From Armatimonadota bacterium (GTDB lineage: Bacteria; Armatimonadota; SYMT01): a stretch of 64,000 nt of DNA. The DNA lies in assembly GCA_041690135.1 (NCBI GenBank), contig JAWLHY010000001.1, positions 544,001 through 608,000 on the forward strand, written 5' to 3'. The position numbers and the translations under genes were made by a program. The notes beneath the pieces are model-generated. The model saw only the letters and a program-made list of their open reading frames with translations, was not told where the DNA came from and made no database searches. Position 1 is the first letter of the stretch. Each line of letters starts with the position of its first letter. Of this stretch, positions 16,592 to 53,042 are shown piece after piece.

Positions 16592-16678
16592 CGGAGAGGG
16601 CGGGATTCGAACCCGCGGTAGAGTTGCCCCTACACCTGTTTTCGAGACAGGCTCCTTCAACCACTCGGACACCTCTCC
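16592..16678 (-). tRNA. tRNA-Ser(CGA)
   Basis: GGAGAGGTGTCCGAGTGGTTGAAGGAG-CCTGT-CTCGAAA-ACAGG, long variable arm, GGTTCGAATCC, G discriminator. Confidence 0.95.
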
Positions 16679-16771
16679 CCGTATCTATTAGCCTCCCTCA
16701 CAGGTTTTGTGCCTGGCTAGGGAGCCTGTCTATCCTACAGCTTCTCTTCGATGGGGTCAAGGAGAGAAGTC

Positions 16772-33915: not shown

Positions 33916-33937
33916 GGGCGGTCGGTCGCGGGGAAGA

Positions 33938-36178: not shown

Positions 36179-36733
36179 TTATACACACCGTAGGGCAGTA
36201 CTTTGCTGCACCAGGTACCACTTGAGCTTCTTCGTCAACTCCTGGGGGTTGCGGCACTCCATGAAGTCCCAGCGCCCGAGATTGCCCCAGTTGTTCACCG
36301 CTGAACACCAGCGGCGGGCGGCCTGGTGCTTGGCGCTCTCTTCGTCGCCGTGCTGTCCTTTGATCTCTAAGAGGAGAAAGGTTCCGTCGTTCAGGCACAC
36401 GATGTAGTCAGGCTCGTAGGTGCGGGCCACGCCTTCGTACTCGTAGGGGATCAGCAGGAAGGGGCGGTCGTTGCGGACGTAGTGCTTCACGAAGTCCTTC
36501 TGCTGCTCCAGGAAGAAGGCCGCGCTCTGCTCCCAGGCTGAGTCGAGAACCACGGCATCGACGTGTGAGCGCACCGTGCTGTGGACGTGACGGGTGGTGG
36601 TGAAGTCCACATCCGCCGTCGTGCCGATGGGCTTGAAGCGGTTGAGCAGCGGCAGAAGCGGCGTCTCGCCCTGGGCGTCATCGGGTTCGATGGCGTCCAG
36701 GAGCTGGCCCTTGACCCAAATCACGTAGCGGTC
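36179..36733 (-). pseudogene. C-terminal remnant of a type III restriction endonuclease (Res)
   Basis: VVLDSAWEQ, YVRND, YEPDYIV, LLEIKG, AARRWCSAVNN..GRW. The helicase part is missing. Confidence 0.75.
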
Positions 36734-36812
36734 CAGACCTCTCGCGGGTCCGCGCCGTTCCAGTCCACCTTGGTGCCGACGTACTGTGAGGATAGTGGTC
36801 ATTGGCAGTGTC

Positions 36813-39179
36813 TTACAGCCCCGTAGGAGGTACCATGTTTGTTCCGACAGAGGCGGTCGGAGGTGGGAAGCGCGGCGGCACGCGAGGTGCATCCGCTGGG
36901 CTAGCTGGCGGCACGTTCAGCAACTCGGTCTCGCTCAGCATTGCCACCTCCATCTCGACTCCCTCCTGCTTGAGATCGGTCCGAAGCTGCTCCACCAGTT
37001 TCACCGCCTCATCGCCGAACTTGGCGGTGGTCGCGAAGTAGAACTTCACGATGCCCAACTCGGCAGCCAGCCGGGCGGTCACCATGTCCTTCTCCTCTAG
37101 GCCCGTGCCTGCTTTGCACTCCCCAGCGTAAAGCTGTTGCTCGAAGCAAAAGAGGAAGTCGAGTTCCTTCTCCTTCGCCTCCTTGGTGAGCGAGAGGCCC
37201 GTGGTAAGGCATGAACACTTCCGGCCCTTGGTCAGGTGGTGCAGCGCCAGCAGGTTGGGGAGCACGTCTTGGTCCATCGCCCGGTTTACCAGCGTGTTTA
37301 GCCGGTATTCCCACTGGATTTCTGACCCCTTGGGCTGCTCGACCGGAAGGGGGGACTCATGTCCGCAGCCTGTGCATTGCACGCGCTCCTTGACGGCTTC
37401 TAGGGGATGCCAGTCGGGAGCACCGCAGCGCGGACAGTGAAGATAGAAGCCACGGACAAGCACAGAGGCTCGGGTGAGTTCGTCCATCAAACCGAGGAGC
37501 TTGCCCTTGTAAGGCTGTAGCTCTTGACGCTGGCTCAGTTGCCGGTAGGTCTTGGTGACGCCCTTCAATTCTGAGATCACCTCGACATCTTCGAGCACCC
37601 GCTGGATGTCCGGCAATTGCTCTTGCTTCAGTCCGAATTGCTGAGCGACCCGCTGCGCGATCTTCTTAGTGCTGCGGAGCGCCAGCAGGTCAAGCAAGAG
37701 GTATGCCTCCTTCGAGGCCAGGAGGTCCACCCGTGGCATGCCGCCTAGCAGGGTCACTAGGGCGTCTGCATACTGTCCGTCCTTCGAGAGTTGGGTCTGA
37801 TAGCCTCGCGCCTGGAAGTACTGGCGCAGGCTCTCCCACTCGTCAAGCAGGCTGATGGCGAGATAGGTAGCAGTTTCCGGGACGTGCCGGATGTTGGTGA
37901 GACCGTACTTCGAGAATCGCGCCTGCTGGTCAATCGCATTACCAACCGCCTGCGCTTTCGGATACCGGCTCCAAACATCGCATTCGATGTCTACCCCTAC
38001 CCCCGCATAGCCGCGATTTCGGAAGCTCGGCGGCGGTTGGAGCAGGACCTCGTTGGTGCCCAGCGTTAGCTCCACTCGATGAGCTACCTGCGGCTCGATG
38101 CCCTCGTAGTACTCGTAGGGAAGCCGTGGGACACTGGGGGCATAGATGAGCTTGGAAACATCCAGGTCCACATTTTGGGGTGGCTTCGGACCGCTCCACG
38201 AGTGATCGGACGCCTTGGCACCCTTGGGATGGCGCTTGAAGAGACGGCACTTACCAAGGGCGGCGGCGAGTTGATCCTCCTTTTCATCCGACCAAGCGGT
38301 AGCGATGATGTGAACGTCAGCGTGCAGGTTAGGGTAGAGGATGTTCTGCTGGATAAACCGGCCCAATGACCTGATGCACGCTCGGTCGGCAAGAAGTTCC
38401 GCAGGCACCAGGAAGGTGCGTCGCCCCAGGTCCCTGTCGAACTGCGTGCTCTCGCGCAGTGAGCGGAGGTTCCAGTAGTAGCACAGGTCGAGGGGGGATT
38501 CCACCAACACGAGATTGAAGCTGTTGGTCCTCGTGCTCCCCACGACCTTGTGTGGGCGCATCCCGTAGGCGGTAAGATTCAGCACCGACCCGAACGGATC
38601 ATCGACGTACTGCGACTCCCAAAAGGCCGAACTGGTAACCGCAACCTCCCGGTCGGCAATCGTCAGGTTCTCGTCGTATGCCTCTTCCTGTCCAGGATAG
38701 ATGCTGCCGAAGAGCGCGAGTCCGAGCCACGGTTTGCCAAAGTCGTTATCAAGGGTGTATCGGCCCAAGCTCTTCGACTGCCGGTCCTCGTCGGTAAGGA
38801 CGTGAATCGGGTGCGGTGCAGGGTCAAACTCCCGAAACCAGCGCATCTGCTGGAGGTGTAGTGTCCTCCCTGGGAAGAGAGCCTGTAGGCTCGCGAGTGT
38901 GCCCTGATGAATGCCTGGAGGATTCCGGTTCCAGCCATTGAAGTCTCCGACGAAGCCATCGGGATCGGCAAGACGTAGCAGGTGCGCGAAGAACGAGTGG
39001 ATGCTGCCATCCCGCTGGACCGGAACGAGGATGGTCCTGAGGCCGCCCCACTGCGTGCAAACGAACCGCAGAATCTGCGTGAGCGCGTCCGCATCTTCCT
39101 CATGGAAGAAGTACGCGAACTTCGCAGGCCGTAGGTTGACCTTCAGCTTGTAGGCATCATCTAGTGCGGTCGGAACCAT
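36813..39179 (-). CDS. Large hypothetical protein with a C-terminal Zn ribbon and PD-(D/E)XK nuclease
   Basis: CPRC...CTGC followed by KELDFL...YAGECK; GAGGAG RBS. Confidence 0.65.
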   Translation of the reverse strand: MVPTALDDAYKLKVNLRPAKFAYFFHEEDADALTQILRFVCTQWGGLRTILVPVQRDGSIHSFFAHLLRLADPDGFVGDFNGWNRNPPGIHQGTLASLQALFPGRTLHLQQMRWFREFDPAPHPIHVLTDEDRQSKSLGRYTLDNDFGKPWLGLALFGSIYPGQEEAYDENLTIADREVAVTSSAFWESQYVDDPFGSVLNLTAYGMRPHKVVGSTRTNSFNLVLVESPLDLCYYWNLRSLRESTQFDRDLGRRTFLVPAELLADRACIRSLGRFIQQNILYPNLHADVHIIATAWSDEKEDQLAAALGKCRLFKRHPKGAKASDHSWSGPKPPQNVDLDVSKLIYAPSVPRLPYEYYEGIEPQVAHRVELTLGTNEVLLQPPPSFRNRGYAGVGVDIECDVWSRYPKAQAVGNAIDQQARFSKYGLTNIRHVPETATYLAISLLDEWESLRQYFQARGYQTQLSKDGQYADALVTLLGGMPRVDLLASKEAYLLLDLLALRSTKKIAQRVAQQFGLKQEQLPDIQRVLEDVEVISELKGVTKTYRQLSQRQELQPYKGKLLGLMDELTRASVLVRGFYLHCPRCGAPDWHPLEAVKERVQCTGCGHESPLPVEQPKGSEIQWEYRLNTLVNRAMDQDVLPNLLALHHLTKGRKCSCLTTGLSLTKEAKEKELDFLFCFEQQLYAGECKAGTGLEEKDMVTARLAAELGIVKFYFATTAKFGDEAVKLVEQLRTDLKQEGVEMEVAMLSETELLNVPPASPADAPRVPPRFPPPTASVGTNMVPPTGL

Positions 39180-39404
39180 GTGCTCCTCTAACAAGCAGGC
39201 ATAATGAATCGCTGCTTGCGAACCCGGCCTTCACCCGCGCCTCCAACTCCAACTCCCGCGCCACCTTGCTCTCTTCGCTCCGCACCCGTTCACGGACGAG
39301 CAACTCCAGCACGCCCGCCTGGCTGATGCCGAGGTGCCGGGAGAGCCACGCCAGGTGGTCGAGAGCCTCCGCGCTCAGGCGGAAGTTGGTTGCTTCCTCC
39401 CCAT
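39157..39404 (-). pseudogene. Ribbon-helix-helix regulator, apparently frameshifted near its start
   Basis: Manual translation ATNFRLSAEALDHLAWLSRHLGISQAGVLELLVRE. The ATG at 39404 is out of frame with it. Confidence 0.5.
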
Positions 39405-39649
39405 CCGTCCCCCTGCCTGATGTAGCGCGTTTGTAGCGTCGTGCCTCTTACCTGTCATTCGTAGACTGGCCGGTTTCCTCTGCAATCAACCGCGTGCCAA
39501 GCCTGGGCCAATCTCACGCACAAGAACTCCAGGGAGTCCCTGCCGATCTGACGTGGCCGACGGGGGGGCGTGTTGGCTTGGCTCCCCTGAGGAAACCCCT
39601 CCACCTAGATGGAACGATGGCATCCGGGATGGGACCCGCTGTGAGCGGG

Positions 39650-40174
39650 CTAAAAGGACAGCCCGTTCTCGACAAACGACGAGATACGGTAGTACACGTC
39701 CTGGTCCCTTGGTATCATCCCGTCGAGGAAGAACATCACCAGGTCGTCTTCCTCGACATACCTGCTCAGGAGGTCCGAAACAGTCTCGTGGCGTCGGAAG
39801 CAGTACGTGTGAAGAGCACCTCGCACCAGGTCGGTGGCTTCGTCGCTCTCTTCCGACAGCGGCTCTGATCCACTCGGGAGTAGTTTTGCGGAGCGGAGGT
39901 GTGCGACCAGACCCTCCCAGGATTGTCCCGTCTCAGACCACCAGTCCAGGAACAGCGGGTCGTATTCGTAATCCCAGTAGCGGGATTCATAGACCGAGTG
40001 GATGTTCCGAAGCGTGACGAGCCAGAGGGCTACTTCTACGGGCGGCGTATCGGGCTGGATCACGGAACCAAGCTTCGGATCGTGCAGCGCGGCCCATGCC
40101 GTATCCCACCATGCGGTATTTCCTGGGTCGTCCACATTGCTGAACAGCTTGGTCCGCACCTGATCCCAATCCAT
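39650..40174 (-). CDS. Acidic hypothetical protein, last gene of the kinase operon
   Basis: GAGGA RBS, starts about 24 bp after the Mad8-like stop. Confidence 0.6.
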   Translation of the reverse strand: MDWDQVRTKLFSNVDDPGNTAWWDTAWAALHDPKLGSVIQPDTPPVEVALWLVTLRNIHSVYESRYWDYEYDPLFLDWWSETGQSWEGLVAHLRSAKLLPSGSEPLSEESDEATDLVRGALHTYCFRRHETVSDLLSRYVEEDDLVMFFLDGMIPRDQDVYYRISSFVENGLSF

Positions 40175-40197
40175 CGTTTCCTCGCATTCTTGAACGG

Positions 40198-43100
40198 CTA
40201 TTCTGCGATCCCCTCGGCAGTTGTGGAGAGGTAGGGATACATCTCCACCTCGGCGCAGGTTGCCATCTGGGGCGTCTGAATGAGCGCGTGGCCTACGTCC
40301 AGTCCTTCGAGCTTGGACACAGTATCCGGGATGAAGTGCGGAGCCTTGAGGTATCCCGAGACCCGCTTGGAGAGCGGGTAGTTGGTTCGGAAGATCACCT
40401 TAGTGCCTGCGTTATCCAGCACCTCGGGACGAAAGTCTTGCATGTTTTGGCTGGCGACCACGACGGCTATCCCGAACTTCCGTCCTTCCTTCATCAGCTT
40501 GGGGAGCGTTGTATCTTTCGCCAGACGGTGAGCCTCATCGAGAACGATCAATAGCCTCAGCCGATCTGTCTCACCCCAAAGGAACATGTCCTTGTAGAGC
40601 TTGCGAAGGACGAACGCCCCCGCCGCCATCTGCATCGTCTCGATCCCCACGCGGTGCAGATCGATGACAGTGGTTTGAAGTCGTGAGGGATGGAACGCCA
40701 GGGTCTCTGCTGCATCCTCGCGGAACATGTCGAACTCGAAGAGCATGCGGCAGCGGGCGACGGTATTCTTGATCCCACGACGCTCGTTCTCTAACTCCTT
40801 GAGCCGGGTGAAGACTTCCGCCATCGTTGGTGGCGTCAGGTCTGAGTCTCGATCCCCATCGCTCTCATAGCCCGCTCGCTGGTAGCAGTCACGGATCGCT
40901 TCATACACGAGGTCTCGCTGCATATCGCCGAGACCAAACACGTATTCGATGATCTCGCCGACCTGGAAAGCATTGGTCCGCCACTGGTTCGTGCCTCCGC
41001 CTTGCCCGGCACTCGCCTCGAACGGTGAGAAGGGCAGACCCTGTGATACATCCAAGACCAGGGGCTTTGCTGCCTTCGCAAAGGGGGTGTCTCCCTGACC
41101 GAACTGCCCGTGAAAGTCGAAGATCAGCGCGGGAATACCCCGTCGGGTGACTTCGGACAGCAAGCGCAGGACGGCCCAACTCTTCCCCTGTCCAGGAATG
41201 CCCAGCACAAAGAGGTGGGAACTCCCAGAGACGGAGCCGGTCCAGGAGACTTCGGCATCTGAATGGACGCTCCTTCCCAACGGAATGACCAGTTTGGAGG
41301 GGCCGTCGGTTCTCCGCTCATCCGGCTCGCGGGAGGGTTCCGCTGACTCGACCTCTACTGCCTCCTCAACCTCGGGAGCATCTTCAGCAGGTTGCGGCAT
41401 GGTCGGGGTGTCCAGTACAGCGGTGGAGACTCGCGCCTCAGTGGCAGCCCGCCCTTCACCACGCTGGTCCGCGCTGGCTTCTGCCGTTATAGGCGGCTCC
41501 TGGCTCCCTGAACCGCTCTGGCTTGGTCTGACACTGGGGCGAAAGCTGGTGTCCCGCTCCACCTCGATCCCCGTCAGCACCGTGATCATATTGTCTCGAT
41601 GCGTGAACGGTCGGCGGCTCTGTCCATCCAGATTGACTACATAGCCGAAGAAGCGAGACGCCAGGCGAGCAAAGCCCATCTCCACGCGCCTGATGTTGCT
41701 CAGCATCTCTGCGTAGTGGCTATCATTGGTGATCCGTCCATGCCGGTAGGCACGTTCCGCGTAGAATCGCAAGATAGCCGCCAACTGGCACCTGAGGATC
41801 GGCGCATCGAAACGGGCCGGGTCGGCAAAGTAGAGACTGCGGAAGGTCTGATCCGTTCGCGCCGTCTGATCGGCGATTTGGTCCAGGAGGGGCGTGGGCA
41901 CGGGGTTGTTCCCGATCCGGTACTTGACCTCCAGATAATCGATTAACAACCGCTGGCGGGTTGGACGCACCAGGAGAAGGTCGCAACGACTCCCCGACTC
42001 GGTCACCTGGGCTTGCTTGGCATCCAGGAAAAGCCGCTTGTGCGCATCCAGGGGCACCACAATGGCGTCCTGTAGCTCGCCTTTCTGCTGGAGGTAGTTC
42101 GCGACGACCGCCAGGCTGACCGTTTCCTTGGCGAACGAGTCCTGGCCGAGATCGCTCCCGACTTCATTTCCGATGAGACGCAGCGCCAGCCGCCCCGAGA
42201 TCATCTTCAAAGTTGCCAGAAGCTCCGCGCAGCTTCTCTCGTCTCGTGCGAGGCCCAGTTCGTGCATCGCACGGGCGATCACGTCTGCAACTTCCTCCTT
42301 CCACTGCGTTGTGACCACGAGACGATGCCCCAGACCATCCAGAAACTCGGGCGTGTAGTCCAGGAGATACTGCCGGGCCTGCGAGGCGAGGTGAGTGTCA
42401 GTCGGCGTGTCGTAATACTCCACCCCGAAATGCCGGTCCACCGTGAGCACCCAGTCCGACTGCTGATGCAGAGTACTCACGATCCGCCGCTCCTCAGGAC
42501 CCACCTCCAGCCGCAGCGCGGGGACCTGGTTCGTCTGCGCCTGCCCGTCTACCAGCCTCGCCGACAAGCGCAGAAACGCTTCTTGCCCCTCCACCAGCAG
42601 GTCTGAGTAGGCTCGATTCACAGGATGCCGCTCGGCGACCTGCTCACCCTCGAACACCACCTTGCGCTCCCAGATCGCCCGGCCTTCCTCACTGAAGAAC
42701 TGCGTCTGGAAGTGTGTCAGCAGCCCGAAGATCGCTGCGCTCGTGCCGGTTGCGTAGTGGGAGCCACTCGACCCCTGCGCCTCTCCGCCGTCTCGGGCCT
42801 GGCTAACCGCGATATGTGGTTTGTAGTGGTCCAGGCACAGGGTCAGATGCACGTCTCCGCCAGGAAGGCTGTCCAGGTTCGCATCGGTCAACGTGCGGCG
42901 TGAAACCTGAACGCCAGGTCGCAGGTGCGTGCCTCTTGCCCGTAGCCCGCGACGATACCATTCTTCGGTGATCGCCTCCAGACCGGGCGCGGGGGTCTGA
43001 ACGTCGCTCTCTGTGTGGGTGATGAGATCGAGGTGGAGGGAGCTTCGTCCGTCCGTCCCAAGCGTCTCGTCGTCCGCAGTGGCTTCTGCGAGGGCGTCAT

Positions 43101-45408
43101 CCAGGGCTAGTCGCAAGAACTCCCCTGATCCAGGGTTGATGGCGTTGACACGGAGCGTCTTCAGATAGGTGTGGAGGTCGAGGTAGCTCTTGATCTCGGA
43201 GCCGATATCCTTCGGCTGAAGGTCAGTGAGTGAAGGCTCGATGAGACCGAAGCCGGTCACCCGCGCTACTTCGGACAGCAGCGTGCCCGGATCGTCGGTA
43301 TTAAGCGGTACGCAGATGGCATGGAAGAAGCCGAGGTTGTCGGCGAAGATTTCTGATCGTTCCCCTGCTTCCCCCCTCACGAGAAACGCGGGCAGGTTGA
43401 GGGGCGCGAGATGTGCCAGTGCCGTCTCATTCAAACGGGCTGCTCGCGTGCGCTGCGGCAGTCCCACCAACTCGCCAGTGATCTTACTGATCCACTCCGC
43501 GTAGGCCACGTACCACAGCAGGCGCAGTGGATGGGTGGGCAGCACCACCGTGGCGTGAGGCCGACCGGGCAAGTAAGGTATCTCTAACTGGAGAGTGTCG
43601 AGGGCGAGTAGAGCCGCCGCATCCTCCCGCGAGCCACCGTTGGTGTCGGAGCGGCGAGCGCTGGTGGCTGCATCAAGCAGGTCACAGTATGCCTTGGCGT
43701 AGGCGCGGACATGGCGGCAGACGCTGGCGCTGAGATCAGCCGTTTCGATGAGGCCGCGCCCCTTCTGATCCCGTATGGCATCAAACGCTTGCTTCCGTTC
43801 CCTGGTGAACTTGCTCCAGGCGTCCGACAAACCCGCGCTGACGACCACAGGCTGTGCTTCCACACGGTCGCGGTCCAGGGTGTCTACGCCCGTCACAGTC
43901 GCTGTATAGCGCCCCCCTAGCAGCGGGTTAGCGAGAGCATCTGTCTCCAACTCCCGCAGGAAGGGGGTCGTCGCCACACGGACTACCGAGCGCTCGTTCA
44001 CCATGAACGGGTAGTACGCCAGGTCCTTCTCTTCCACGGGAAGCGGGGAGAGGTGGTACTGCGCCTCCTTACCCCGCATCGCAAGGGAAAGCACGGCGTC
44101 AGGCAAGCATCGGAACGTCGGAAGCCGACGCAGCTTGGCCTGGTCTCCATCTGTGCCTGCCGCCTCCAGGTAGAAGCTCTGGCTGATGCCTTCGATGGCT
44201 TCGCTCGTCTCGGGGTCGAGAATCTCGGTGCCATTAGTGTCTAACCCCACCACGCGAGCCTGAACCTCTCGCACGTCCAGAGTGGCGGGGTCCAGGTCAA
44301 GCGAGACCTTGGCGGACCGGGCGCTCCCGCGCACCGTCGCCTGGGGAAGGTCCACGCCTGCGGCGTCACCAGCATCGTATTTGTCGCGGTCGGGGATCAA
44401 TTCGACTCGCCACTGCGCGACATCCGTGGGTTTGCTGGGCTGTGGCTCCCAGCGCACCGTGACCTTCTGCTTAGGTCCACACTCCGCGTAAGGAACCGTC
44501 CCAGGTGCCGCCTGCTTCAGTCCGCAACTGGCTCTGACGACGCCGTTCTCATAAAACGGCACCACGTCGATCCTTTCCAGATCGGACGGCTCGACCTTCG
44601 GGAACTGCCACTGGTCAAAGGTCAGGCGGCCCTGCCAGTCCGGCTCCGTCAGGATGCGGAGCCATTCGCGATCTGACTGGAGCCGCTTCCCGATCAGGTA
44701 CTGGCTCAACTCCGTCTGGATGGTATTCGGGGCGAGCTTGAGGGATGCGACTCGCTCGGCTACGCTGGAGTGCGGGCGGGCAGGTCGTGCCAGGCGATCC
44801 ACCGATTGCCGGTTCAGGTCCAAGCGCCTGGCATAGTCGTCGTGCTCGGAGTAATCCGGGATCAGACCTACCCGCCACAACTCGGCTCCCGCCGTCTCCA
44901 GCGTCGGGTTGTCCAGGATGGCGGAGAGATAGTCGATCTCGTCCTCCACGGGCACTCGCGCCGTGCCACGCAACTGTCGGAAGACGGCGTTCACGTAGGG
45001 CTTCACGTCTCTGGGGATGTCGTTCTGAAGCTCATCCACAAGCCTACGGAGGAACTCGGGGAGGTCGAAGGGAGCGAAGGAGTTGCCGAGCGAGCTAACC
45101 GCCACATCCTGAAGATCGGCAGGCACGAACAGGCAGAGGCCGGACCGCTTGCGGTTGCGAAGCTCGATAGCCCGGTCGGAGGGGATTTGCAGGTCGTCCT
45201 GTTGATCGTGTGACAAAACATACGTCTCAGCGTTCGCACTCATCACAGACCGCAGACCCATACCCGCGCTGCGGGCTTCCTCCGCGCTCAGATGGTCCAC
45301 GCGCACGCAGTGCCCTGGGAGCTTGCCGTCGAACTCGCTCGCCAGCCGTTCGATCAATCGCTGCATCTTCCGCGAGAGTGGTGGTGCCGATCCCACGGGG
45401 CCATTCAT
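40198..45408 (-). CDS. Mad8/DndH-like giant ATPase (PD-(D/E)XK nuclease plus HerA/FtsK ATPase)
   Basis: AIELRN, PTHPLRLLW, SDWVLTVDRHFGVEYYD, RCDLLLV...LEVK, Walker A GIPGQGKS, Walker B LDEAH, KEGRKFG. Confidence 0.75.
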   Translation of the reverse strand: MNGPVGSAPPLSRKMQRLIERLASEFDGKLPGHCVRVDHLSAEEARSAGMGLRSVMSANAETYVLSHDQQDDLQIPSDRAIELRNRKRSGLCLFVPADLQDVAVSSLGNSFAPFDLPEFLRRLVDELQNDIPRDVKPYVNAVFRQLRGTARVPVEDEIDYLSAILDNPTLETAGAELWRVGLIPDYSEHDDYARRLDLNRQSVDRLARPARPHSSVAERVASLKLAPNTIQTELSQYLIGKRLQSDREWLRILTEPDWQGRLTFDQWQFPKVEPSDLERIDVVPFYENGVVRASCGLKQAAPGTVPYAECGPKQKVTVRWEPQPSKPTDVAQWRVELIPDRDKYDAGDAAGVDLPQATVRGSARSAKVSLDLDPATLDVREVQARVVGLDTNGTEILDPETSEAIEGISQSFYLEAAGTDGDQAKLRRLPTFRCLPDAVLSLAMRGKEAQYHLSPLPVEEKDLAYYPFMVNERSVVRVATTPFLRELETDALANPLLGGRYTATVTGVDTLDRDRVEAQPVVVSAGLSDAWSKFTRERKQAFDAIRDQKGRGLIETADLSASVCRHVRAYAKAYCDLLDAATSARRSDTNGGSREDAAALLALDTLQLEIPYLPGRPHATVVLPTHPLRLLWYVAYAEWISKITGELVGLPQRTRAARLNETALAHLAPLNLPAFLVRGEAGERSEIFADNLGFFHAICVPLNTDDPGTLLSEVARVTGFGLIEPSLTDLQPKDIGSEIKSYLDLHTYLKTLRVNAINPGSGEFLRLALDDALAEATADDETLGTDGRSSLHLDLITHTESDVQTPAPGLEAITEEWYRRGLRARGTHLRPGVQVSRRTLTDANLDSLPGGDVHLTLCLDHYKPHIAVSQARDGGEAQGSSGSHYATGTSAAIFGLLTHFQTQFFSEEGRAIWERKVVFEGEQVAERHPVNRAYSDLLVEGQEAFLRLSARLVDGQAQTNQVPALRLEVGPEERRIVSTLHQQSDWVLTVDRHFGVEYYDTPTDTHLASQARQYLLDYTPEFLDGLGHRLVVTTQWKEEVADVIARAMHELGLARDERSCAELLATLKMISGRLALRLIGNEVGSDLGQDSFAKETVSLAVVANYLQQKGELQDAIVVPLDAHKRLFLDAKQAQVTESGSRCDLLLVRPTRQRLLIDYLEVKYRIGNNPVPTPLLDQIADQTARTDQTFRSLYFADPARFDAPILRCQLAAILRFYAERAYRHGRITNDSHYAEMLSNIRRVEMGFARLASRFFGYVVNLDGQSRRPFTHRDNMITVLTGIEVERDTSFRPSVRPSQSGSGSQEPPITAEASADQRGEGRAATEARVSTAVLDTPTMPQPAEDAPEVEEAVEVESAEPSREPDERRTDGPSKLVIPLGRSVHSDAEVSWTGSVSGSSHLFVLGIPGQGKSWAVLRLLSEVTRRGIPALIFDFHGQFGQGDTPFAKAAKPLVLDVSQGLPFSPFEASAGQGGGTNQWRTNAFQVGEIIEYVFGLGDMQRDLVYEAIRDCYQRAGYESDGDRDSDLTPPTMAEVFTRLKELENERRGIKNTVARCRMLFEFDMFREDAAETLAFHPSRLQTTVIDLHRVGIETMQMAAGAFVLRKLYKDMFLWGETDRLRLLIVLDEAHRLAKDTTLPKLMKEGRKFGIAVVVASQNMQDFRPEVLDNAGTKVIFRTNYPLSKRVSGYLKAPHFIPDTVSKLEGLDVGHALIQTPQMATCAEVEMYPYLSTTAEGIAE

Positions 45409-45420
45409 TGTCGCATGATC

Positions 45421-47154
45421 CTATGAGTGCTGGAGGGTTGTCGATTCAGTTGCAGTGGGTCTCGCGTCCTCGGGTAGGTCGCTGTGGAAGCGCGGGAAGA
45501 TGCGCTGAGCGTTGAAGTCGTCGGACAGGTCCAGGAAGAGGCCCATCTGGCGGAGGCGCTGCTTGAGCGCGGTGAAGTTGTCCTTGGCGGCGGCGGTGGC
45601 TTCGACGCTATGATCGAAGGATGGCGGAGTGTCGATCAGGATGCCGAACCGCTCCTGGAGGAAGGTCAAGAACGCCGCCAACGTAATGCTTCGAGGTTCA
45701 GGAGCGGGTCTAGGGTCTCCGCTCTGCCGTTGCGCCTCGGGTGAGAGGACCGCTAGCTGGACGAGCGTCTCTAGCAACAGATCGCTCAGCACGTAGCGCC
45801 ACACCCGCCGCCCGCGCTCATTCCCACGCAGTATCCCGTCCGAACGGCGCAGCCCCCCCACGTCGCCGTACCACTTCAGGATGTTGCGGAGACCACTCTT
45901 ACGCTGAAGCAGGACCAGTAGCTCGCTGACTCGGGAGAGCACGTCCAGATCAGGGTGCTCCAGGATCGCCTGAACATCCAGGGGTAGGCTCGTGTCGTCG
46001 TCGCCCTCGCCACGGAAGAGCTTCTCGATCTCTCGCTCATCACTTCGGGCGTCCGCCCTGATATCTGGGTGTTCTCGCAGTCCCCAGAGCGTCGTGAGGT
46101 ATTCCCCACCCACCTTCGGGCCAATCTCGCGCTTCAGGTCCCGATTACCTTCCACGTAGCGGTTGAGCGTGCGAAGCTTGAGCACGGAGTGGAAGAAGTT
46201 CTCCATCTCCTCCAGATGCCGGTTCACGCATTCGTTCGCCAACGTGTCGCTGCGGCTACCTCGGATCTGGGTGAGATCAACGTATAGCTCCAGTGGCGTC
46301 AGTTCCTGGCTTCGGGGGTCAAACTCGGGAGGCACCTCGCCTTGGACGACCAGAGTGTTCGTCGCCTTCATCAGCCTGAGGGTGTAGATCAGGAGTTCAA
46401 AGTTCAGCAGGCAGATCAAGTAGCGGGCCAGTATCTGCGGCGGAACGCGACCTGAGTAGACAGTCAGAAATCCCGCGATATCCCAGGCAAGGCTCTGTGC
46501 CGCGAAGGCGCAGGCGGGAGGTGCAGGGGGGCGAGCCGACCGATTGCTCTCTCGTGGGGCGTCGAAGCCGTCCAGATAGTACAGTTGCAGCAGCACCTCT
46601 AGGTCGAGCGGAGTGTGCCCATCGTACCGCCCGTCTTTGCTCGCTCCCTGGCCTAGCTCTACGCCACGTGCGAACGTTCGGGTGATGAGAGCGTCGAATA
46701 TTCCCTGGACGACACCTCGATCCCGTGGGTCTCGGGTCAATAGCGTGGTGAGCAATCCGTACAGGAAGTGGTGAACCTGCCGCATCCGGCTCGTCTGCGC
46801 GGGAAAGGACGGCTTGTAGGACAGGAAGGAAAGCGGACGAATGTAGGCGATCTGCTCCGCCTTGTGAGCACGGCCCACGGTGCTCGTCTCAATAATGCTG
46901 GTCCGTACCCATTTATCCAGAAGCCGGATACCACTCTCGTCCAGGAAGCCTTTCAGCTTGGGATGACCCGCTAGCGCGGTGGTCCGACCGATGATGTCTT
47001 TCGTATCGGTGCGGGTTGCCCGATCCCTTCCGCCAGACCGGACGAGCCAGAAGAGAGCAGGCAGGAGCATCTCCACGTCAAAATCATTCATCTCGACAAC
47101 AAACAACTCGTCGAGCTTCGTCCCTGCGAGGTCACGGGGGAGCTTTACGCGCAT
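45421..47154 (-). CDS. Mad7/DndG-like protein
   Basis: Middle gene of the trio, C-terminus RYVLSDLLLE...FLQERFGILID...RLRQMGLFLDLSD. Confidence 0.65.
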   Translation of the reverse strand: MRVKLPRDLAGTKLDELFVVEMNDFDVEMLLPALFWLVRSGGRDRATRTDTKDIIGRTTALAGHPKLKGFLDESGIRLLDKWVRTSIIETSTVGRAHKAEQIAYIRPLSFLSYKPSFPAQTSRMRQVHHFLYGLLTTLLTRDPRDRGVVQGIFDALITRTFARGVELGQGASKDGRYDGHTPLDLEVLLQLYYLDGFDAPRESNRSARPPAPPACAFAAQSLAWDIAGFLTVYSGRVPPQILARYLICLLNFELLIYTLRLMKATNTLVVQGEVPPEFDPRSQELTPLELYVDLTQIRGSRSDTLANECVNRHLEEMENFFHSVLKLRTLNRYVEGNRDLKREIGPKVGGEYLTTLWGLREHPDIRADARSDEREIEKLFRGEGDDDTSLPLDVQAILEHPDLDVLSRVSELLVLLQRKSGLRNILKWYGDVGGLRRSDGILRGNERGRRVWRYVLSDLLLETLVQLAVLSPEAQRQSGDPRPAPEPRSITLAAFLTFLQERFGILIDTPPSFDHSVEATAAAKDNFTALKQRLRQMGLFLDLSDDFNAQRIFPRFHSDLPEDARPTATESTTLQHS

Positions 47155-47163
47155 CTCCGCCTC

Positions 47164-50100
47164 CTAGCCCTGCTCGACCGGCAGAAGCTCGATAAAACCG
47201 CCTACTTGCCTGACGCGGTGCAACTGACGCCCGCTCTCCATGAGGAGAAGCTCCTCGGCAGCCTGGTTCAGCAGCCGGTTCTGAAACTGCGCGAGATCGA
47301 TGACGAACGGCTGCTGTTCCTCCGCTCCAGCCTGGTAACCCTCACTGAACCGCATGAGAATCTCGTATAAGTCCAGGGAGATCAGGATGGAGGCATCGCT
47401 CTTCAGATGCAGAAGCTCTAGCGCGTTCGGCAGCACCTCGATGCTGGTCTCTCGCGGCAAGAGCACACGGCACTCGAACTCCGAGTGAGGGAACCTCTTA
47501 AAGACGGTAAGACCGACCTCCTCGTTGTGGCTCGTCCGCACGCAGAGGAACTGGCGATACATGCGGGGGTCCACAATTCCGTCTGCCCGCGAGATGGCTT
47601 CGCAGAGCGTGTCCCTTACTGCCTCCAGCGGCGTTCTGCCGCTGACTGCATCAAGAAACGCGCTGAAGTGACGATAGGGCAGCAGGTCCGGCCACTCTGG
47701 GAGGTGCTGCTCGTGGTTTAAGAGCGCGTTACCGTCTCCCTCGAAGAAGAGACGCCGTTTGTATGCGCCATACCAATCGCGGCCAAGAGCCGTGATGTTG
47801 AGCCCATTTAACGGATCGAGCGCCCGGTTGGTCAGCGGCAGCATGATCCCGTCGATCTCATGCTGGGTGTCGGCATGGCGGCGGAAGTGCAGGAAGCGAT
47901 CCAGCCTGGGAGAGGAGACTTCGGCTGGGTCACAGGCTGCGAAGTCCTTCAAGTTGTCTTCTCCCTCGTCTTCCGGGTTGAAGGCAGCCATGAAGTAGAG
48001 CCGATTGTACCAGTGGGGAGGTCGTTCGTTCTGATCGAGTTCGCGGTGGATGTCCCCGCACGTGGTGGCACCCGTCAGGAGATAGGCCAGCGCCGAACGC
48101 AAGTCGCGCATGGTGACGTGCCGCTCCCTCCGCAGGTGGATGATCTGGAGCAGCGCCCGTATCCGCCTGCGTACTTCCGCACCATGCTGGGGATCGGCTA
48201 GGGTGTCCCGATTGAACTTCATCGGACAGGTCGTCCGTGCTCGACAGGCATCACAGGCCCGCCACTCGTCGCTGAAGATGAGCTTCCCCAGCACTTGGTC
48301 GAACAGGTCGCCCGCCGCCCCCTCCGCGAGTTCGCCCCCGACCACTGCTCTCTGCTTCAAGTCAACGAGCGCTACTCGCTCGTCCACGTGCCAGTCCGGT
48401 CTTTCAAGCAGACGGTAGACTTGCTTGCCAAGCCATTTGTAGTTGGGGTTGGACAGGAGAAACTCGCGCAGCTTCCCATCGTTGATGGCAAGCAGTGCGG
48501 TGTAGGCAGGGTCGCGAGGAGCGGAGTCGCCACGGAAAGGGCGCAGGATTTCGTCCAGCAATTCATTCGCTCGCTTCCCTCGGCTCGACTCGGATGCATC
48601 GTAGTTTGCCGCGAATTCCCGCTCTTCCAGGCGGTAGCGCCAACCGTTCTGACTGTCGCAAGGAATGGCCTCCGCGCCAGCCTCCGCAAGCGCCTCACCG
48701 AGTTGCTCCAGGAACGCCGTCTTACCGTCACCTGGGTTACCACTCAGCAGCACGACCCAGTAGCGGCCCTCCAGCACCCGTGGAATGAGTTCCCGGTCTA
48801 GCTTCGTGGGCACGTAAGTGTCACAAGCGAAGTCGGTGTCCAGCCCCCGATTGTCGGCGTTACCCACGCGGCTGTTCCGGTAGAGACCCTGGATGTCCGT
48901 GACCCAAGTGTTGATGACGCGCTCTCCAGTGGCGGTCACGAACCCCTGGGCGGCTGCCGCCGTGCGCAGAGCGTCAGCGAACTCCTTGGCGGTCGTGAAG
49001 CGTGAGGACTGATCGGCGGAGATCGCTCGACGGATGACGCCCAAAACCTCACCACGAACAAGGTCGTCAGCGGGAGCCAGACTGATGATCTGGCTCTTGT
49101 CAAACCGGCCCTGGAGATCGTGGCAGAATGGTGACTTGCCTGTAAGCATCCTGAACAGCAGTACTCCCAGGGCGTAGGTGTCACAGGTGGAGTTCCACGG
49201 GTCACCCCGATCAAGCTCGGGGGCACGGTAGGCGACCGTCCCGACGGCGGTCCTCCCGACCTCCGCAATGGGCGCAGCGAAGCCGAAGTCAATCAGTTTT
49301 GGACCCGAGTCAGTGATGATGATATTCCGTGCGGAAAGATCGCGATGAGCAAAGGCGTGCGCCTCCAGCGTGTCTAGGGCCTCCAGCACGTCATGGGCGA
49401 AGCTGAGCACGCGGTCGAGAGGCCAGGGAAACTCGCTGCTGAGATCATCGACCGAGGAGCCGTGGACGTACTCCAGCTTGAGATGGAACGGATCCTCAGG
49501 CCTTCGGACATCGAAGACGCGCATGATGCAGCGATGGGACGGCAATCGCTGGAGCGCGTTGAACTCGTTGCCTGCGAGGCGGTGTGCCTGGAGGGGATCA
49601 CGAATCTGTTTCAAGACGAAGGTGCCGCCATACAGGTAGTCACGCACCAGATAGGTATTTGCGGTCCCGCCCGTGCCCAGGACCCGCTCGACCTCATACT
49701 GTTCGGCGATACGATCACCCCGCTGATACAATCCCCCGAAGGGTCTTTGGCCTGGGGTGCCTTCCACGACCGGCTGCCTGACCTCGCTGGATGCCTCGCT
49801 CGCAGCAGCATCGGCGCGGGCGAGCCGGGCGGCGAATAGCTCCCGCAGAAACTTCCTGGCTTCCTCGGCGCTTTGCCATCGGTTACGGTCATCGGCGACA
49901 ACCATCGACCTGAGCACATCCCGCAGGTTGTCGATCTCGTCGGGGAGCAGCCCCGAGTCGTCCAGGCGGAGGGCCGGAATGTTGATGTTGCCGTCGGTAT
50001 CTCGCATCTCCTGGGCGCTCATACCTGTGAATAGCTCAGCCAGGATCAGACCTGCCGCAAAGATGTCCGAGGCGGCGGACGCGAAGGACATGCTGACTGC

Positions 50101-51228
50101 AAGCTCGGGAGCGCGATAAGGCGAGTCTAGGGCGAGGGCATCCGCAGTCGAGGCGATAGACTGGCTATTTGCCAACCGAGCGAACTCAAAGTCGGCAAAG
50201 ACCACTCGGGGAGGGGTCCGTGATTGATCGAGAAACACGTTGTCGGGCGTGAGGTTCCGATGGACGACTCCCTGCTCGTGGAGCAGAGCGAGACCCGTGA
50301 GAAGCGCTTCTCCCAGTTCCAATGCATCCCCTAAAGTTAGCTCCCCGCTGGTGAGGCTCACTGAATAGGCCCGCAGCGAGGGCAGGGCTACCAGGTGCTG
50401 CGGCACCACGATGTAGCGGTCATCCCCCCACTTGAATGGCAGGTCTACCCCAGGGGCCATGCCAGCATTCACCAGCTTGCTCAATGCATGAAAGTCCCGG
50501 TAGATCAACTCTTCCTGGCGGCTCCGCTCGTCATTGTTCAGACCACTGAGTTCATAGAGCTTGAGCCGTCGTTTCCCATCAGTTGTCGCCGCTTCGTGCT
50601 GGGCCAAGAAGGCGCGGTAGTGGGGACCGCCTGTGAGCGCTTCCAGAATGCGATAAGCATTGATGGCACGAGGGAGTGTGGGGCGTGGCGGGAGTAGGCG
50701 CAGCTTCTCCATGATCTGCGGTTGAAAGCGTGCGAGATCATGATCACGGTTACGGCGATCTAGGGTTCGCAACGCTTGGTCCGCGTCAGCCAGCTTGACG
50801 ATCTGGTCTCGGCGCTGCTCTTGCACCAACAAGGTCGCCTCTGGGTCCGACAGGATTACCAACGGCAGGACGAAGGGAACTCCCCCGAACTCAGTGGTGA
50901 CTCCCGGCACCTGATCGCGGACGTAACCGGCTAATCGCCTCGCAACGTACTCCATCTTGTTGAGCGGGCTTTCGAGACTTTCGCGGGAATCCAGCACCCA
51001 GTAGCTCTCGGTTCCGTGGATACGGCCCCGAAGCCCTTTCTCATCCGCAACGAAGATAGTGTGATCGGCGACGATGATGAAGTCTACCTCGCGAGTGGAC
51101 CCATTCGGCATCGTGAATATCTTGTTCGAGACGACCTTCCACTCACGCGGCAGCTTGTCGCGGAAGTATTCCGCCGCTGTCTGCTCACCTTTAGTGATGA
51201 AGTCGCCGAATTGCACAAGTTCTGCCAC
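47164..51228 (-). CDS. Mad6-like NERD nuclease - pseudokinase - Ser/Thr kinase - DndF-like P-loop protein
   Basis: NERD EVDFII..ADEKG; kinase 1 HRNLTPDN/DFE; kinase 2 GTGG, HRDLSARN, DFG, YRAPE; SGNPGDGKT; RHVTMRDLRS. GTG start after GAGGGG. Confidence 0.8.
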   Translation of the reverse strand: MAELVQFGDFITKGEQTAAEYFRDKLPREWKVVSNKIFTMPNGSTREVDFIIVADHTIFVADEKGLRGRIHGTESYWVLDSRESLESPLNKMEYVARRLAGYVRDQVPGVTTEFGGVPFVLPLVILSDPEATLLVQEQRRDQIVKLADADQALRTLDRRNRDHDLARFQPQIMEKLRLLPPRPTLPRAINAYRILEALTGGPHYRAFLAQHEAATTDGKRRLKLYELSGLNNDERSRQEELIYRDFHALSKLVNAGMAPGVDLPFKWGDDRYIVVPQHLVALPSLRAYSVSLTSGELTLGDALELGEALLTGLALLHEQGVVHRNLTPDNVFLDQSRTPPRVVFADFEFARLANSQSIASTADALALDSPYRAPELAVSMSFASAASDIFAAGLILAELFTGMSAQEMRDTDGNINIPALRLDDSGLLPDEIDNLRDVLRSMVVADDRNRWQSAEEARKFLRELFAARLARADAAASEASSEVRQPVVEGTPGQRPFGGLYQRGDRIAEQYEVERVLGTGGTANTYLVRDYLYGGTFVLKQIRDPLQAHRLAGNEFNALQRLPSHRCIMRVFDVRRPEDPFHLKLEYVHGSSVDDLSSEFPWPLDRVLSFAHDVLEALDTLEAHAFAHRDLSARNIIITDSGPKLIDFGFAAPIAEVGRTAVGTVAYRAPELDRGDPWNSTCDTYALGVLLFRMLTGKSPFCHDLQGRFDKSQIISLAPADDLVRGEVLGVIRRAISADQSSRFTTAKEFADALRTAAAAQGFVTATGERVINTWVTDIQGLYRNSRVGNADNRGLDTDFACDTYVPTKLDRELIPRVLEGRYWVVLLSGNPGDGKTAFLEQLGEALAEAGAEAIPCDSQNGWRYRLEEREFAANYDASESSRGKRANELLDEILRPFRGDSAPRDPAYTALLAINDGKLREFLLSNPNYKWLGKQVYRLLERPDWHVDERVALVDLKQRAVVGGELAEGAAGDLFDQVLGKLIFSDEWRACDACRARTTCPMKFNRDTLADPQHGAEVRRRIRALLQIIHLRRERHVTMRDLRSALAYLLTGATTCGDIHRELDQNERPPHWYNRLYFMAAFNPEDEGEDNLKDFAACDPAEVSSPRLDRFLHFRRHADTQHEIDGIMLPLTNRALDPLNGLNITALGRDWYGAYKRRLFFEGDGNALLNHEQHLPEWPDLLPYRHFSAFLDAVSGRTPLEAVRDTLCEAISRADGIVDPRMYRQFLCVRTSHNEEVGLTVFKRFPHSEFECRVLLPRETSIEVLPNALELLHLKSDASILISLDLYEILMRFSEGYQAGAEEQQPFVIDLAQFQNRLLNQAAEELLLMESGRQLHRVRQVGGFIELLPVEQG

Positions 51229-51359
51229 GGGTCCACCCCTCTCGATGGCCGACTGCCGCATCTGGGGCAGCGTTGGGTAGCGCGTCTGTAGCGTACCGCC
51301 TTTAAGCCAATCAGCCAAGCTGCCCGGCTTTCCCTCCTTCAATTCTCTCGAACTGCGGA

Positions 51360-51401
51360 TTTTTCCTCAATTTGCTGCCGCCATGCGCTATGGGTAGTGG
51401 A
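51360..51401 (+). promoter_or_regulatory. Element-specific promoter motif, copy D
   Basis: TTTTTCCTCAATTT-N12-CGCTATGGGTAGTGGA, same boxes as copy B. Confidence 0.7.
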
Positions 51402-51426
51402 AAACGCGCTACACAAAGGAGGCAAG

Positions 51427-51873
51427 ATGCAGACGTTGACGAGAGACGGGGTTGGGTATCGCACCCGCGTGATGACGGAACAGAATGCTCAATCGTTTGC
51501 CGCCTGCCTGCGGGCCAACGGCCAGTTCACCAACGTGGAAGTTCACGAGGAGCCACGAGCCAAGGGGGAGCGCCGCTATTACGTCGCCTACCAGCCGTCA
51601 GACCCACAGCAGCAGCAGGTGCTTCTCCAGGGCCACGAGGAGCAGCGCCGCGCCAGAGCCGAGAGTGAGGGCGAGCAATACCTCTTCGTCGAGAATTCGG
51701 ACACTGGCCGCTTCTTCTGGTGCCAGTCGGTCAGCGGCGAAGTGTACGAGGTGACACTCCACAACTGCACCTGCCCGGATGCCGAGTTCCGCTGCCGGAC
51801 GAACGGAATCCGCTGCAAGCACTCCCTGGCGCTGGAGAAGGCCCAAGAACGCGGTGCCGTCCTCACCTTCTGA
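51427..51873 (+). CDS. SWIM zinc-finger protein
   Basis: YEVT..CTCPD...CKH; AAGGAGG RBS; followed by a hairpin at 51882-51907. Confidence 0.8.
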   Translation: MQTLTRDGVGYRTRVMTEQNAQSFAACLRANGQFTNVEVHEEPRAKGERRYYVAYQPSDPQQQQVLLQGHEEQRRARAESEGEQYLFVENSDTGRFFWCQSVSGEVYEVTLHNCTCPDAEFRCRTNGIRCKHSLALEKAQERGAVLTF

Positions 51874-52112
51874 TGCATGAGAGGGCCGGGAGTCCGCATC
51901 CGGCCCTAAGCACGCCGAGGAACGCCGATGAAGGACGACGAACTACTCTCGCAGACCACCCGACATCCCACCGACTTCACCCACCGTGTTGACGCGCAAA
52001 TCCAGCGGCTCGACGACCTCTAACAAAGCGTGCAGGTTCACTACAAGTACTTCCCAGCGGGTGTCGTCAATAGCTTCGGGTGGTAGACGGCCATTACAGA
52101 CGGGTACCAACA

Positions 52113-53042
52113 ATGAGTATGCGAATATCAGCGGGCGCGAAGAAAGCAGCGTTTGCGAGCGCAGGTAATCGCTGCGCGTTTCCGAACTGCGATATGACGC
52201 TGGTTACGAGCGATGGTTACCTTCTCGGCGAGATTGCGCACATCGTCTCGATCACTGGGGCTGGCCCACGCTATGACCCGTCAGTCTCTGTGGGTGACCG
52301 CGTTTCTTCAGAGAACCTAATCGCTCTGTGTCCAAACCACCATCGCGTCGTTGATCTGGAACCAGAAGTCTACACGACGGAGTGGTTGCGCAAAGCGCGT
52401 GCCGAGCACGAAGTTCAAGTTGCCAAGTCAACGATCACCATTCCACGGGTGACACCGTTGCTTCCGAAGGAACTGTCCACCTTCGCAAGTGCGCTCCAAA
52501 CCTGGCGAGAAAACCGCAACAATCCAGATGAAGAATTCTGGCAGACGGTGTTTACTGAACATCCACATCTAATTGCCCAGGCAGTTCCTGGTTGCGTTCT
52601 CCAGATTGGGCAGAAGTGCTACGTCGGAGGCAAAGGTATTCACAACTCGGGCGGCAATATCGTTGACTTTCTTTACGTCATCCAATCCACAAGCAACTTG
52701 GTTGTTGTCGAGATAAAAACCCCTACGACCAAACTGATGGGTGGCCTCTACCGGAACAATGCGTATGCAATCTCCGAAAATCTCACAGGTGCGGTAGTTC
52801 AATGCCTCAACTATCGAGATCAGTCCCTCAAGAACTACTATCAGCTTACTGGTGAGTCGGGCGGGGCGTTTAGTGCATTCAACCCTATGTGCCTGATCAT
52901 CGCGGGGAACGTAGCATCGGAGTGTGATGATTTTAATAAGAAGCGTTCGCTTGAACTTTTCCGTTCAACACTCCAGCCGGTAGTGCTCGGCTACGACGAG
53001 CTATTTGCGAAGGTGGAGAACCTGGTTGATATACTCGGGTGA
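52113..53042 (+). CDS. sduA: Shedu (SduA/DUF4263) nuclease with an N-terminal HNH domain
   Basis: HNH: CAFPNC, EIAHI, NLIALCPNHH. DUF4263: EEFWQ..F, YVGGK, VDFL, VEIKTP, AVVQ, GYDEL. Confidence 0.8.
   Translation: MSMRISAGAKKAAFASAGNRCAFPNCDMTLVTSDGYLLGEIAHIVSITGAGPRYDPSVSVGDRVSSENLIALCPNHHRVVDLEPEVYTTEWLRKARAEHEVQVAKSTITIPRVTPLLPKELSTFASALQTWRENRNNPDEEFWQTVFTEHPHLIAQAVPGCVLQIGQKCYVGGKGIHNSGGNIVDFLYVIQSTSNLVVVEIKTPTTKLMGGLYRNNAYAISENLTGAVVQCLNYRDQSLKNYYQLTGESGGAFSAFNPMCLIIAGNVASECDDFNKKRSLELFRSTLQPVVLGYDELFAKVENLVDILG

Follow-up and report, generated by a model that had tools for sequence, protein, structure and literature searches.

The methylation-associated defence system (MADS) has been described as a set of eight genes, mad1-mad8 (Maestri et al., bioRxiv 10.1101/2023.03.30.534895), whose self mark is N6-methyladenine (m6A) (10.1101/2023.03.30.534895; PMC13662399). 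According to the preprint, MAD6-8 are mandatory in the detection model for the system, and mad5 can be deleted only along with mad2 or mad3 (10.1101/2023.03.30.534895). A reappraisal of Dnd systems describes, in the parts that concern us, DndF variants with an N-terminal NERD domain and inactive plus active S/T/Y kinase domains, gives DndH as a dead methylase followed by a restriction endonuclease (REase) and a HerA ATPase, and suggests that DndG may read phosphorothioate (PT) marks (Rakesh, Aravind and Krishnan 2024, PMC10853773). Stand-alone DndFGH is already described there (PMC10853773), and both this and the fused architecture are echoed in a passage of PMC12839542. In the portions searched, the MADS texts (the preprint and PMC13662399) make no mention of Dnd and the Dnd reappraisal (PMC10853773) makes none of MADS; the restriction mechanism of MADS is listed as unknown in the relevant part of a 2026 review. 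Here we describe a four-gene operon, P1 to P4, within a 64,000-nucleotide stretch (the window) of an Armatimonadota genome (GTDB lineage Bacteria; Armatimonadota; SYMT01; GenBank assembly GCA_041690135.1, contig JAWLHY010000001.1, positions 544,001 to 608,000). The operon is probably a DndFGH-type restriction module that belongs to the MADS mad6-mad7-mad8 lineage, stands on its own and was brought in by a tRNA-Ser integrative defence island. The domains of the first three genes (the trio) are identifiable, their catalytic motifs are intact, their order is conserved among relatives, and no modification gene is linked to them here or in their clade.

The four open reading frames (ORFs) were co-directional on the minus strand, from 51228 to 39650, with intergenic gaps of 9, 12 and 23 nt by their listed coordinates. 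All four had the codon pattern of real genes, with a GC content of 0.73-0.74 at third and 0.41-0.45 at second codon positions. The frame of P1 was open back to a TTG at 51342 and would encode 1392 aa from that first TTG; the GTG at 51228 is where the alignment to the NCBIfam MAD6 model begins, and a purine-rich GAGAGGGG box lies just upstream of it. Upstream of P1, the divergent ORF at 51427-51873(+) encodes a SWIM zinc-finger protein (Pfam SWIM 24.5 bits, cut-off 19.6). A promoter and terminator scan of 39000-52200 returned sites no more often than in shuffled sequence, and no inverted repeats were found in the two intergenic regions examined. The first-pass annotation of this DNA, which had described the four-gene operon, its domain content and the SWIM neighbour, proved accurate in every particular against the ORF listing, Pfam and PADLOC. 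The genes and their domains are as follows.

47164..51228, minus strand: P1, 1354 aa from the GTG at 51228; MAD6, or kinase-fused DndF
50851..51192, minus strand: NERD (PD-(D/E)xK) nuclease domain of P1, residues ~13-126; Pfam NERD E 4.4e-13
49813..50586, minus strand: pseudokinase domain of P1, residues ~215-472; second Pkinase stretch
48988..49698, minus strand: active protein kinase domain of P1, residues ~511-747; Pfam Pkinase E 1.2e-52
47272..48813, minus strand: DndF/SspF-type core of P1, residues ~806-1319; PADLOC SspF and DndF matches
45421..47154, minus strand: P2, 577 aa; MAD7, or DndG-like DNA-binding subunit
40198..45408, minus strand: P3, 1736 aa; MAD8/DndH-like
42298..43281, minus strand: class-I S-adenosylmethionine (SAM)-methyltransferase-like fold of P3, residues ~710-1037 (from ~613); catalytic motif lacking
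41719..42006, minus strand: restriction-endonuclease motif region of P3, D1143 ... E1160-x-K1162; inside the PADLOC DndH alignment
40231..41235, minus strand: HerA/FtsK-type ATPase of P3, residues ~1392-1726; Pfam DUF87 and TrwB_AAD_bind
39650..40174, minus strand: P4, 174-aa acidic protein

P1 passed the NCBIfam MAD6 model NF047741 with 492.7 bits (cut-off 460), and model positions 1-610 of 612 were aligned. The NERD motif, D49 ... D62-E63-K64, was kept in its D/E-x-K form in all 14 aligned homologs. Of the two kinase-like domains, the first has HRN for HRD and DFE for DFG when aligned to the active domain of P1 and is thus a predicted pseudokinase, whereas the second retains Lys540, an HRDLSARN loop at residue 628 and DFG at 647; the Lys, HRD and DFG positions are kept among the 14 homologs. 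The C-terminal core carries a Walker A motif (GNPGDGKT at 830) and AINDG at 914, both found in 14/14 aligned homologs, the latter in the form AIN[DE]G. When the C-terminal 593 aa were compared with PADLOC, SspF models matched at 3.9e-24 and 5.3e-24, the second over positions 45-558 of 593, and DndF matched at 5.7e-7; a sequence search of the PDB returned nothing significant for this core. From its PADLOC matches and motifs, the core is predicted to be the derived P-loop kinase with a canonical Walker A that characterizes DndF. The HRDLSARN loop (residues 628-635, approximately 49324-49347 of the window) has counterparts of the form HRD-x-S-x-[RK]-N in three related loci (L005, L007 and L017); among the remaining stand-alone homologs the sequence is HRDIKPxN, except that L009 has HRDLKPSN. 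The catalytic loop of tyrosine kinases takes the form HRDLAARN, which HRD-x-S-x-[RK]-N recalls.

P2 aligned end to end with the NCBIfam MAD7 model NF047733 (positions 1-529 of 529), with 399.5 bits against a cut-off of 410. Tested members of the clade to which P2 belongs fell on both sides of that threshold: L013 (485.7), L021 (422.5) and P0008 (420.0) passed, and P0015, P0020, P0026 and P0029 were below it. In PADLOC, P2 matched mad7 (7e-16) and, weakly, SspG (5.4e-4), and its sequence profile found no significant chain in the PDB. An AlphaFold (AF2) model built from 19 homologs had a predicted local distance difference test (pLDDT) score of 77.4; searching the PDB with it in Foldseek gave a single match at E<=0.001, 7exx, 'structure of DndG' (E 5.9e-5, probability 1.00, template modelling score 0.52 on the target). 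The predicted fold of P2 is that of DndG, a triple winged helix. The precomputed Pfam label PF26611.1 is attached to 45/45 P2 homolog matches; a local Pfam scan of P2 itself did not give this label.

P3 comprises an N-terminal alpha/beta domain, a beta-rich region, a methylase-like fold, an REase and a HerA/FtsK ATPase. PADLOC matched it to DndH (1.3e-32, residues 1154-1661) and mad8 (6e-18), its sequence matches in the PDB were HerA (4d2i) and DptH (7es4), and it failed the NCBIfam MAD8 model NF047742 (cut-off 175), scoring 88.3 bits over residues 32-225. The structural model built for residues 1-1150 (pLDDT 77.3) placed the alpha/beta domain at 13-130 and the beta-rich region at 279-520. Foldseek returned no match for this model at E<=0.001 (beta-sandwich matches had probability 0.99 but E 0.04, and helicase matches had low probability), and the methylase fold emerged only when the model was given a second look with VIA. 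The VIA alignment matched that fold to 2eg5_E (Z 13.0, root-mean-square deviation 3.6, 188 aligned) and to the DNA adenine methyltransferase M.BseCI (Z 10.0). The [DNS]PP[YFWH] motif does not occur anywhere in P3; its NPGSG loop (residue 758) and DRHF (residue 991) are shared by its homologs. Downstream, ExK is kept in 15/17 aligned homologs, and D1143 and, in the ATPase, the Walker A (1403-1410), DEAH (1624-1627), R1643 and S1653-Q1654 are each found in 94% or more of the 17. By these motifs and the modelled fold, P3 has an apparently active REase preceded by a predicted catalytically dead DNA methylase, as in DndH, and its C-terminal domain has the Walker A/B, Arg finger and sensor-1 Gln expected of the HerA/FtsK ATPase of DndH. 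In the P3 homologs of L009 and L021, ExK is lost (IAVSRR and IAVAWQ, respectively) while the ATPase motifs stay.

The trio was also compared with an annotated MADS-type operon on a Piscinibacter plasmid, which encodes, in order, a helix-turn-helix (HTH) protein, an N6 methyltransferase (MTase), an AAA ATPase, proteins of 215 and 443 aa, a kinase of 1391 aa, and proteins of 557 and 1858 aa. This eight-gene operon bears out the statement of the first-pass annotation that mad1-5 precede these genes in MADS. P1 was 28.6% identical to its MAD6 over residues 1-1348, P2 was 23.9% identical to the seventh gene product over the whole length, and P3 was 26% identical to MAD8 (E 5e-49) over 527-1253 and 24% over 18-338. 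The NCBIfam, PADLOC, Foldseek and Piscinibacter comparisons agreed with the earlier identification of the trio as MAD6-7-8/DndFGH-like. Shorter variants in Hymenobacter and Bacteroides finegoldii consist of a methylase, HsdS and the trio, and on Bacillus thuringiensis pKK1 a 1308-aa gene lies ahead of the trio. In the B. finegoldii plasmid operon (methylase-HsdS-trio), a PP2C phosphatase gene (L029:20118-20783) overlaps the end of MAD8, which hints that phosphorylation by MAD6 is a reversible signal.

Relatives were sought with one genome per species using alignment A2, alignment A1 being too divergent. The 20 related loci came from Armatimonadota, Chloroflexota (six from Thermogemmatispora), Acidobacteriota and one proteobacterial metagenome-assembled genome (MAG). 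P3 followed P2 in all 20, P1 preceded P2 in each of the 17 loci whose contig reaches upstream, and the NERD-kinase N-terminus was present in 11 of the 12 with a visible P1 N-terminus, the other (L008) being a bare DndF core of 699 aa. Pfam was run on 70 of 100 flanking ORFs; the 30 omitted, from L013, L014, L015, L018 and L022, repeat the sizes and order seen in L012/L013. No same-strand MTase and HsdS pair lay upstream of the trio in the loci scanned upstream (0/9), and a type III system lay downstream, on the other strand, in L007. When 29 P2 homologs were placed in a maximum-likelihood tree, those from trio loci (19 rows, the window included) grouped into one clade (bootstrap 96, SH-aLRT 95), of which 7 rows have too little flank for their free-standing state to be sure; its sister clade (support 100/98) was made up of four plasmid rows with a linked MTase and three others of unplaced context. 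The comparison of homologous trios that the first-pass annotation had proposed, looking for absence of an MTase, thus came out in its favour. Among the genomes of 60 relatives of the window genome, only one distant P2 homolog was found (26% identity), a rarity that fits horizontal acquisition, and neither the trio nor P4 was found on viral contigs. The homolog of P3 in Thermogemmatispora tikiterensis is interrupted by 2.7 kb of inserted DNA that carries an IS605 OrfB/TnpB-type gene (L012:12624-15330).

Several points weigh against a free-standing module of this lineage. Two of its three proteins fell below the NCBI curated cut-offs, MAD7 narrowly (399.5 vs 410) and MAD8 widely (88.3 vs 175). 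PADLOC matched no family up to E = 1 on residues 1-1150 of P3, and none of the domains expected at the N-terminus of DndH (an inactive SWI2/SNF2 half, an HTH, two beta-sandwiches and target recognition domains) was individually confirmed in its model. One relative, L017, has a divergent gene for a 1589-aa Eco57I/MmeI-type protein (type IIG methylase-nuclease) abutting P1. At least 11 DNA-methylase loci and a complete dndB/C/D/E cluster lie elsewhere in the genome, so that protection could act in trans. The 23 nt between P3 and P4 contain no terminator-like site, and P4 is probably co-expressed with the trio and could still act on it in this strain. Canonical DndFGH is harmful in Salmonella once dndB-E is removed, which also argues against an engine that runs unmarked. 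The MADS deletions argue the other way, as relief of mad5-deletion lethality by loss of mad2 or mad3, in the account given in the preprint, would place the autotoxic activity in the methylase/OLD-like branch and not in mad6-8. Finally, that P1-P3 form one complex, that they defend against phages or plasmids and that they discriminate self from non-self without a mark are all steps that we infer. The stand-alone defence system put forward by the first-pass annotation finds partial support: no marking genes are linked at the locus and its clade is free-standing, but the dnd cluster shows that the genome does have modification genes.

The genome, which is 97% complete, was searched in six frames with five DNA-methylase Pfam families, giving 2 matches to N6_Mtase, 7 to N6_N4_Mtase, 1 to C5, 4 to Eco57I and 3 to D12. 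None fell within the window (C1:544001-608000) or the rest of the island, and the earlier statement that the window holds no methyltransferase or dnd modification gene was confirmed by genome-wide profile searches and extends to mad5 and to the rest of the island. The trio might depend in trans on a solitary host DNA methyltransferase, that is, be a MADS with its methylase and specificity genes elsewhere, and we consider this rather unlikely. It accords with m6A as the self mark of MADS in the accounts cited above, and the genome does have a solitary 619-aa methylase (N6_Mtase/Eco57I/TaqI_C) on contig C11 besides other MTases. However, mad5, the HsdS-type gene, had 0 matches genome-wide, the mad2 model matched only generic, partial stretches, and the methylase-like domain of P3 itself lacks the catalytic motif. 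Moreover, the lack of a linked methylase and specificity pair throughout the clade argues for independence of the trio and not for repeated relocation of its partners.

The trio might instead be the restriction half of a split Dnd system and spare DNA that carries PT marks made by the dndBCDE genes on contig C7, in the manner of canonical DndFGH. DndB (446.5 bits), DndC (543.6), DndD (420.7) and DndE (94.3) were all above their cut-offs in this cluster (approximately 359000-374200; loci L024 and L025), which also encodes an IscS/DndA-type desulfurase, and P2 has the predicted fold of DndG, which may read PT according to the cited part of PMC10853773. The cluster, however, has a restriction partner of its own, an HKD-helicase that scored 561 bits with dnd_restrict_1 (cut-off 600), and it further contains a dnd-associated methyltransferase (dnd_rel_methyl), another DndD-like ATPase accompanied by dnd_assoc_4, and an IS630 transposase; by its gene content it is a self-contained type with its own nuclease. 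DndC was above its cut-off in only 3 of the 20 trio genomes, the 17 without it including three named Thermogemmatispora strains, and by sequence the trio belongs to the methylation-linked MADS lineage and is closer to SspF than to DndF. A split Dnd system is thus unlikely; coupling between the trio and C7 looks improbable because C7 has its own HKD-helicase and so few trio genomes have DndC. The first-pass annotation had looked to mad2/mad5 or dndBCDE elsewhere in the element or genome, and required for viability, as evidence against an orphan module, and had also raised reliance on a distant modification. The genome does carry dndBCDE, on C7, and methylases, but no mad5 and only generic matches to mad2.

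In another arrangement, the operon would be a four-gene system in which the acidic P4, as an inhibitor, antitoxin or DNA mimic, restrains the nuclease or kinase until infection. P4 is very acidic (pI 4.37; 31 acidic and 13 basic residues), has its own ribosome-binding site and resembles P1-P3 in its codon-position GC (0.62/0.41/0.73). Extra genes also vary after MAD8 in MADS-type operons, such as the PP2C gene in B. finegoldii and two unnamed genes in Hymenobacter. No family in Pfam, PADLOC or NCBIfam matches P4. A word-based search through 5.8 billion clusters recovered nothing except P4 itself, and the ESM Atlas had no usable match. A full phmmer scan of 1.84 billion representatives found six relatives of 38-42% identity, all on contigs shorter than 2.4 kb. 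The P4-family profile was absent from the 20 trio loci and four plasmid MADS loci (0/24), and P4 was found in none of the 60 relatives' genomes. We regard restraint by P4 as quite unlikely, and the suggestion of the first-pass annotation that the small acidic protein holds the system in check gained no comparative support. As a conserved fourth subunit, P4 was ruled out by BLAST (0/20 trio loci) and by the profile (0/24).

The only P4 homolog with visible context (40% identity, E 1e-44) was located with a single protein, P0052, as alignment A4 was too divergent. In this locus (L038, 1071-3961 of a metagenome contig), a protein with ankyrin, AAA and AAA_lid_6 domains starts 27 nt after the P4 homolog; upstream are an ORF like ParD, of ribbon-helix-helix type, and a glycosyl-hydrolase gene, and no DndH-like gene is adjacent. 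The ankyrin-AAA protein is 44% identical (E 3e-130) to the product of window gene 25498-27144(+), and these two, P4 and the ankyrin-AAA ATPase, are the only genes that the locus shares with the window, where they lie 12.5 kb apart on opposite strands. Because the family is absent from the 24 loci and the homolog adjoins an ankyrin-AAA gene, P4 appears to be the stray half of another two-gene unit. Most likely, P4 is not a subunit of the trio but a passenger whose proper partner is the ankyrin-AAA ATPase of the island, and the two genes may form a unit that was split. A small gene behind an operon, as P4 illustrates, need not belong to it.

It is very unlikely that the trio is a decaying, non-functional remnant of an eight-gene MADS operon that lost mad1-5. 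In favour of decay, only the divergent SWIM gene and Shedu lie upstream of P1, and the mosaic island has other genes that may be broken. Against it, each of the three long reading frames (4.1, 1.7 and 5.2 kb) is intact, their catalytic motifs are conserved, and the same three-gene cassette recurs as a supported clade in Armatimonadota, Chloroflexota, Acidobacteriota and one proteobacterial MAG.

As a free-standing restriction module, the trio would work along the lines of the DndFGH model published in the corresponding part of PMC10853773. By homology, P2 with its DndG fold and the DNA-reading parts of P3 would bind DNA, those parts being the catalytically dead methylase-like domain with its inserts. 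The HerA/FtsK ATPase of P3 would translocate on the DNA, which the PD-(D/E)xK nuclease would nick or cut. P1 would be the sensor or regulator, its DndF-type P-loop core binding nucleotide and its active kinase, pseudokinase partner and NERD nuclease serving as signalling or back-up effector domains. An invader would then be told from self without a cognate epigenetic mark, through infection cues acting via P1. More broadly, and tentatively, MADS and Dnd-FGH may represent two independent couplings of marking modules to one autonomous DndG/DndH/DndF engine, the marking module being type-I-like methylation with an OLD-like nuclease in MADS and phosphorothioation in Dnd. The free-standing clade would then be the engine without an epigenetic mark, in which infection is sensed by the fused kinase and pseudokinase together with the nucleotide-binding DndF core.

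A three-gene form that lacks the methylase, the specificity subunit and the OLD-like branch is a minimal system, and it is suited to asking what directs and activates the DndH/MAD8 motor-nuclease and which role the kinase plays in MADS, Dnd and Pgl. There is also a consequence for annotation, as genes that match the NCBI MAD6 and MAD7 models are called 'methylation-associated' even where the locus has no linked methylase.

The operon lies in a mosaic island. Near position 16000 of the window, GC content drops from approximately 0.68 to approximately 0.60. Genes for tRNA-Cys and tRNA-Ser are located at 16359-16678, followed by a tyrosine integrase at 16751-17818, and the island ends approximately 1.7 kb beyond the window, past a HEPN gene, after which come sulfatase and oxidoreductase genes. 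Its other defence genes include the HNH-Shedu gene sduA at 52080-53042(+), a gene for a 1241-aa protein with HNH and tetratricopeptide repeat (TPR) domains at 53237-56962(-), and PDC-M26A/B at 33938-36106 and 31270-33963. SduA and the TPR neighbour have a common N-terminal HNH module (PADLOC PDC-M68A and effector endonuclease models). At 36179-39447(-), an ORF of 793 aa and one of 237 aa share 80 nt. The shorter one corresponds to the C-terminal 166 residues of BPTD_3080, a restriction endonuclease family of 970 aa, and the 793-aa part has no match; their summed length fits one frameshifted gene. A ribbon-helix-helix-like frame with no obvious start codon lies just upstream, at 39157-39447. 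Outside the tRNA-Ser island, a low-GC (0.54) segment encodes a TIR and ThsA-Macro protein similar to ThsA of Thoeris, at 863-2050(-).

Four described systems resemble the trio. PglW of type 2 BREX/Pgl has the same N-terminal triad of NERD, pseudokinase and kinase; however, its model matched only the N-terminal half of P1 with 225 bits against a cut-off of 990, the PglZ Pfam family had 0 matches in the genome, and the C-terminal half is a DndF core in P1 but a winged HTH and inactive STAND module in PglW. For SspFGH (PMC8092258), the SspF models were the best PADLOC matches to the P1 core, one near full length, and SspG matched P2 weakly; in contrast, no SspH model was among the 17 PADLOC families matched by P3, and the modelled SspF has no kinase or NERD N-terminus. 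P1-P3 correspond to MAD6, MAD7 and MAD8 of MADS in order, size and sequence. They differ from plasmid MADS in their 24-29% identity, in their placement in a separate free-standing clade and in the absence at the locus of mad1-5 (an HTH regulator, an N6 methylase, OLD-like MAD3/MAD4 and HsdS-type MAD5); where operonic mad2/mad5 and the MAD3/MAD4 ATPase-Toprim pair would be expected, the upstream neighbours are the SWIM ORF and Shedu, and mad3 and mad4 had no match among the 15 window proteins scanned with PADLOC. Differences from DndFGH lie in the weak match of P1 to PADLOC DndF and in the restriction of DndH model matches to the C-terminal third of P3. The likeness to DndFGH extends to the gene order, the NERD-pseudokinase-kinase-DndF fusion, the DndG fold, a DndH with dead methylase, REase and HerA, and the stand-alone state. 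The high novelty once claimed for the locus does not stand, as the kinase- and NERD-fused DndF and stand-alone DndFGH are both already in print in the part of PMC10853773 devoted to them, and the operon joins this known kind.

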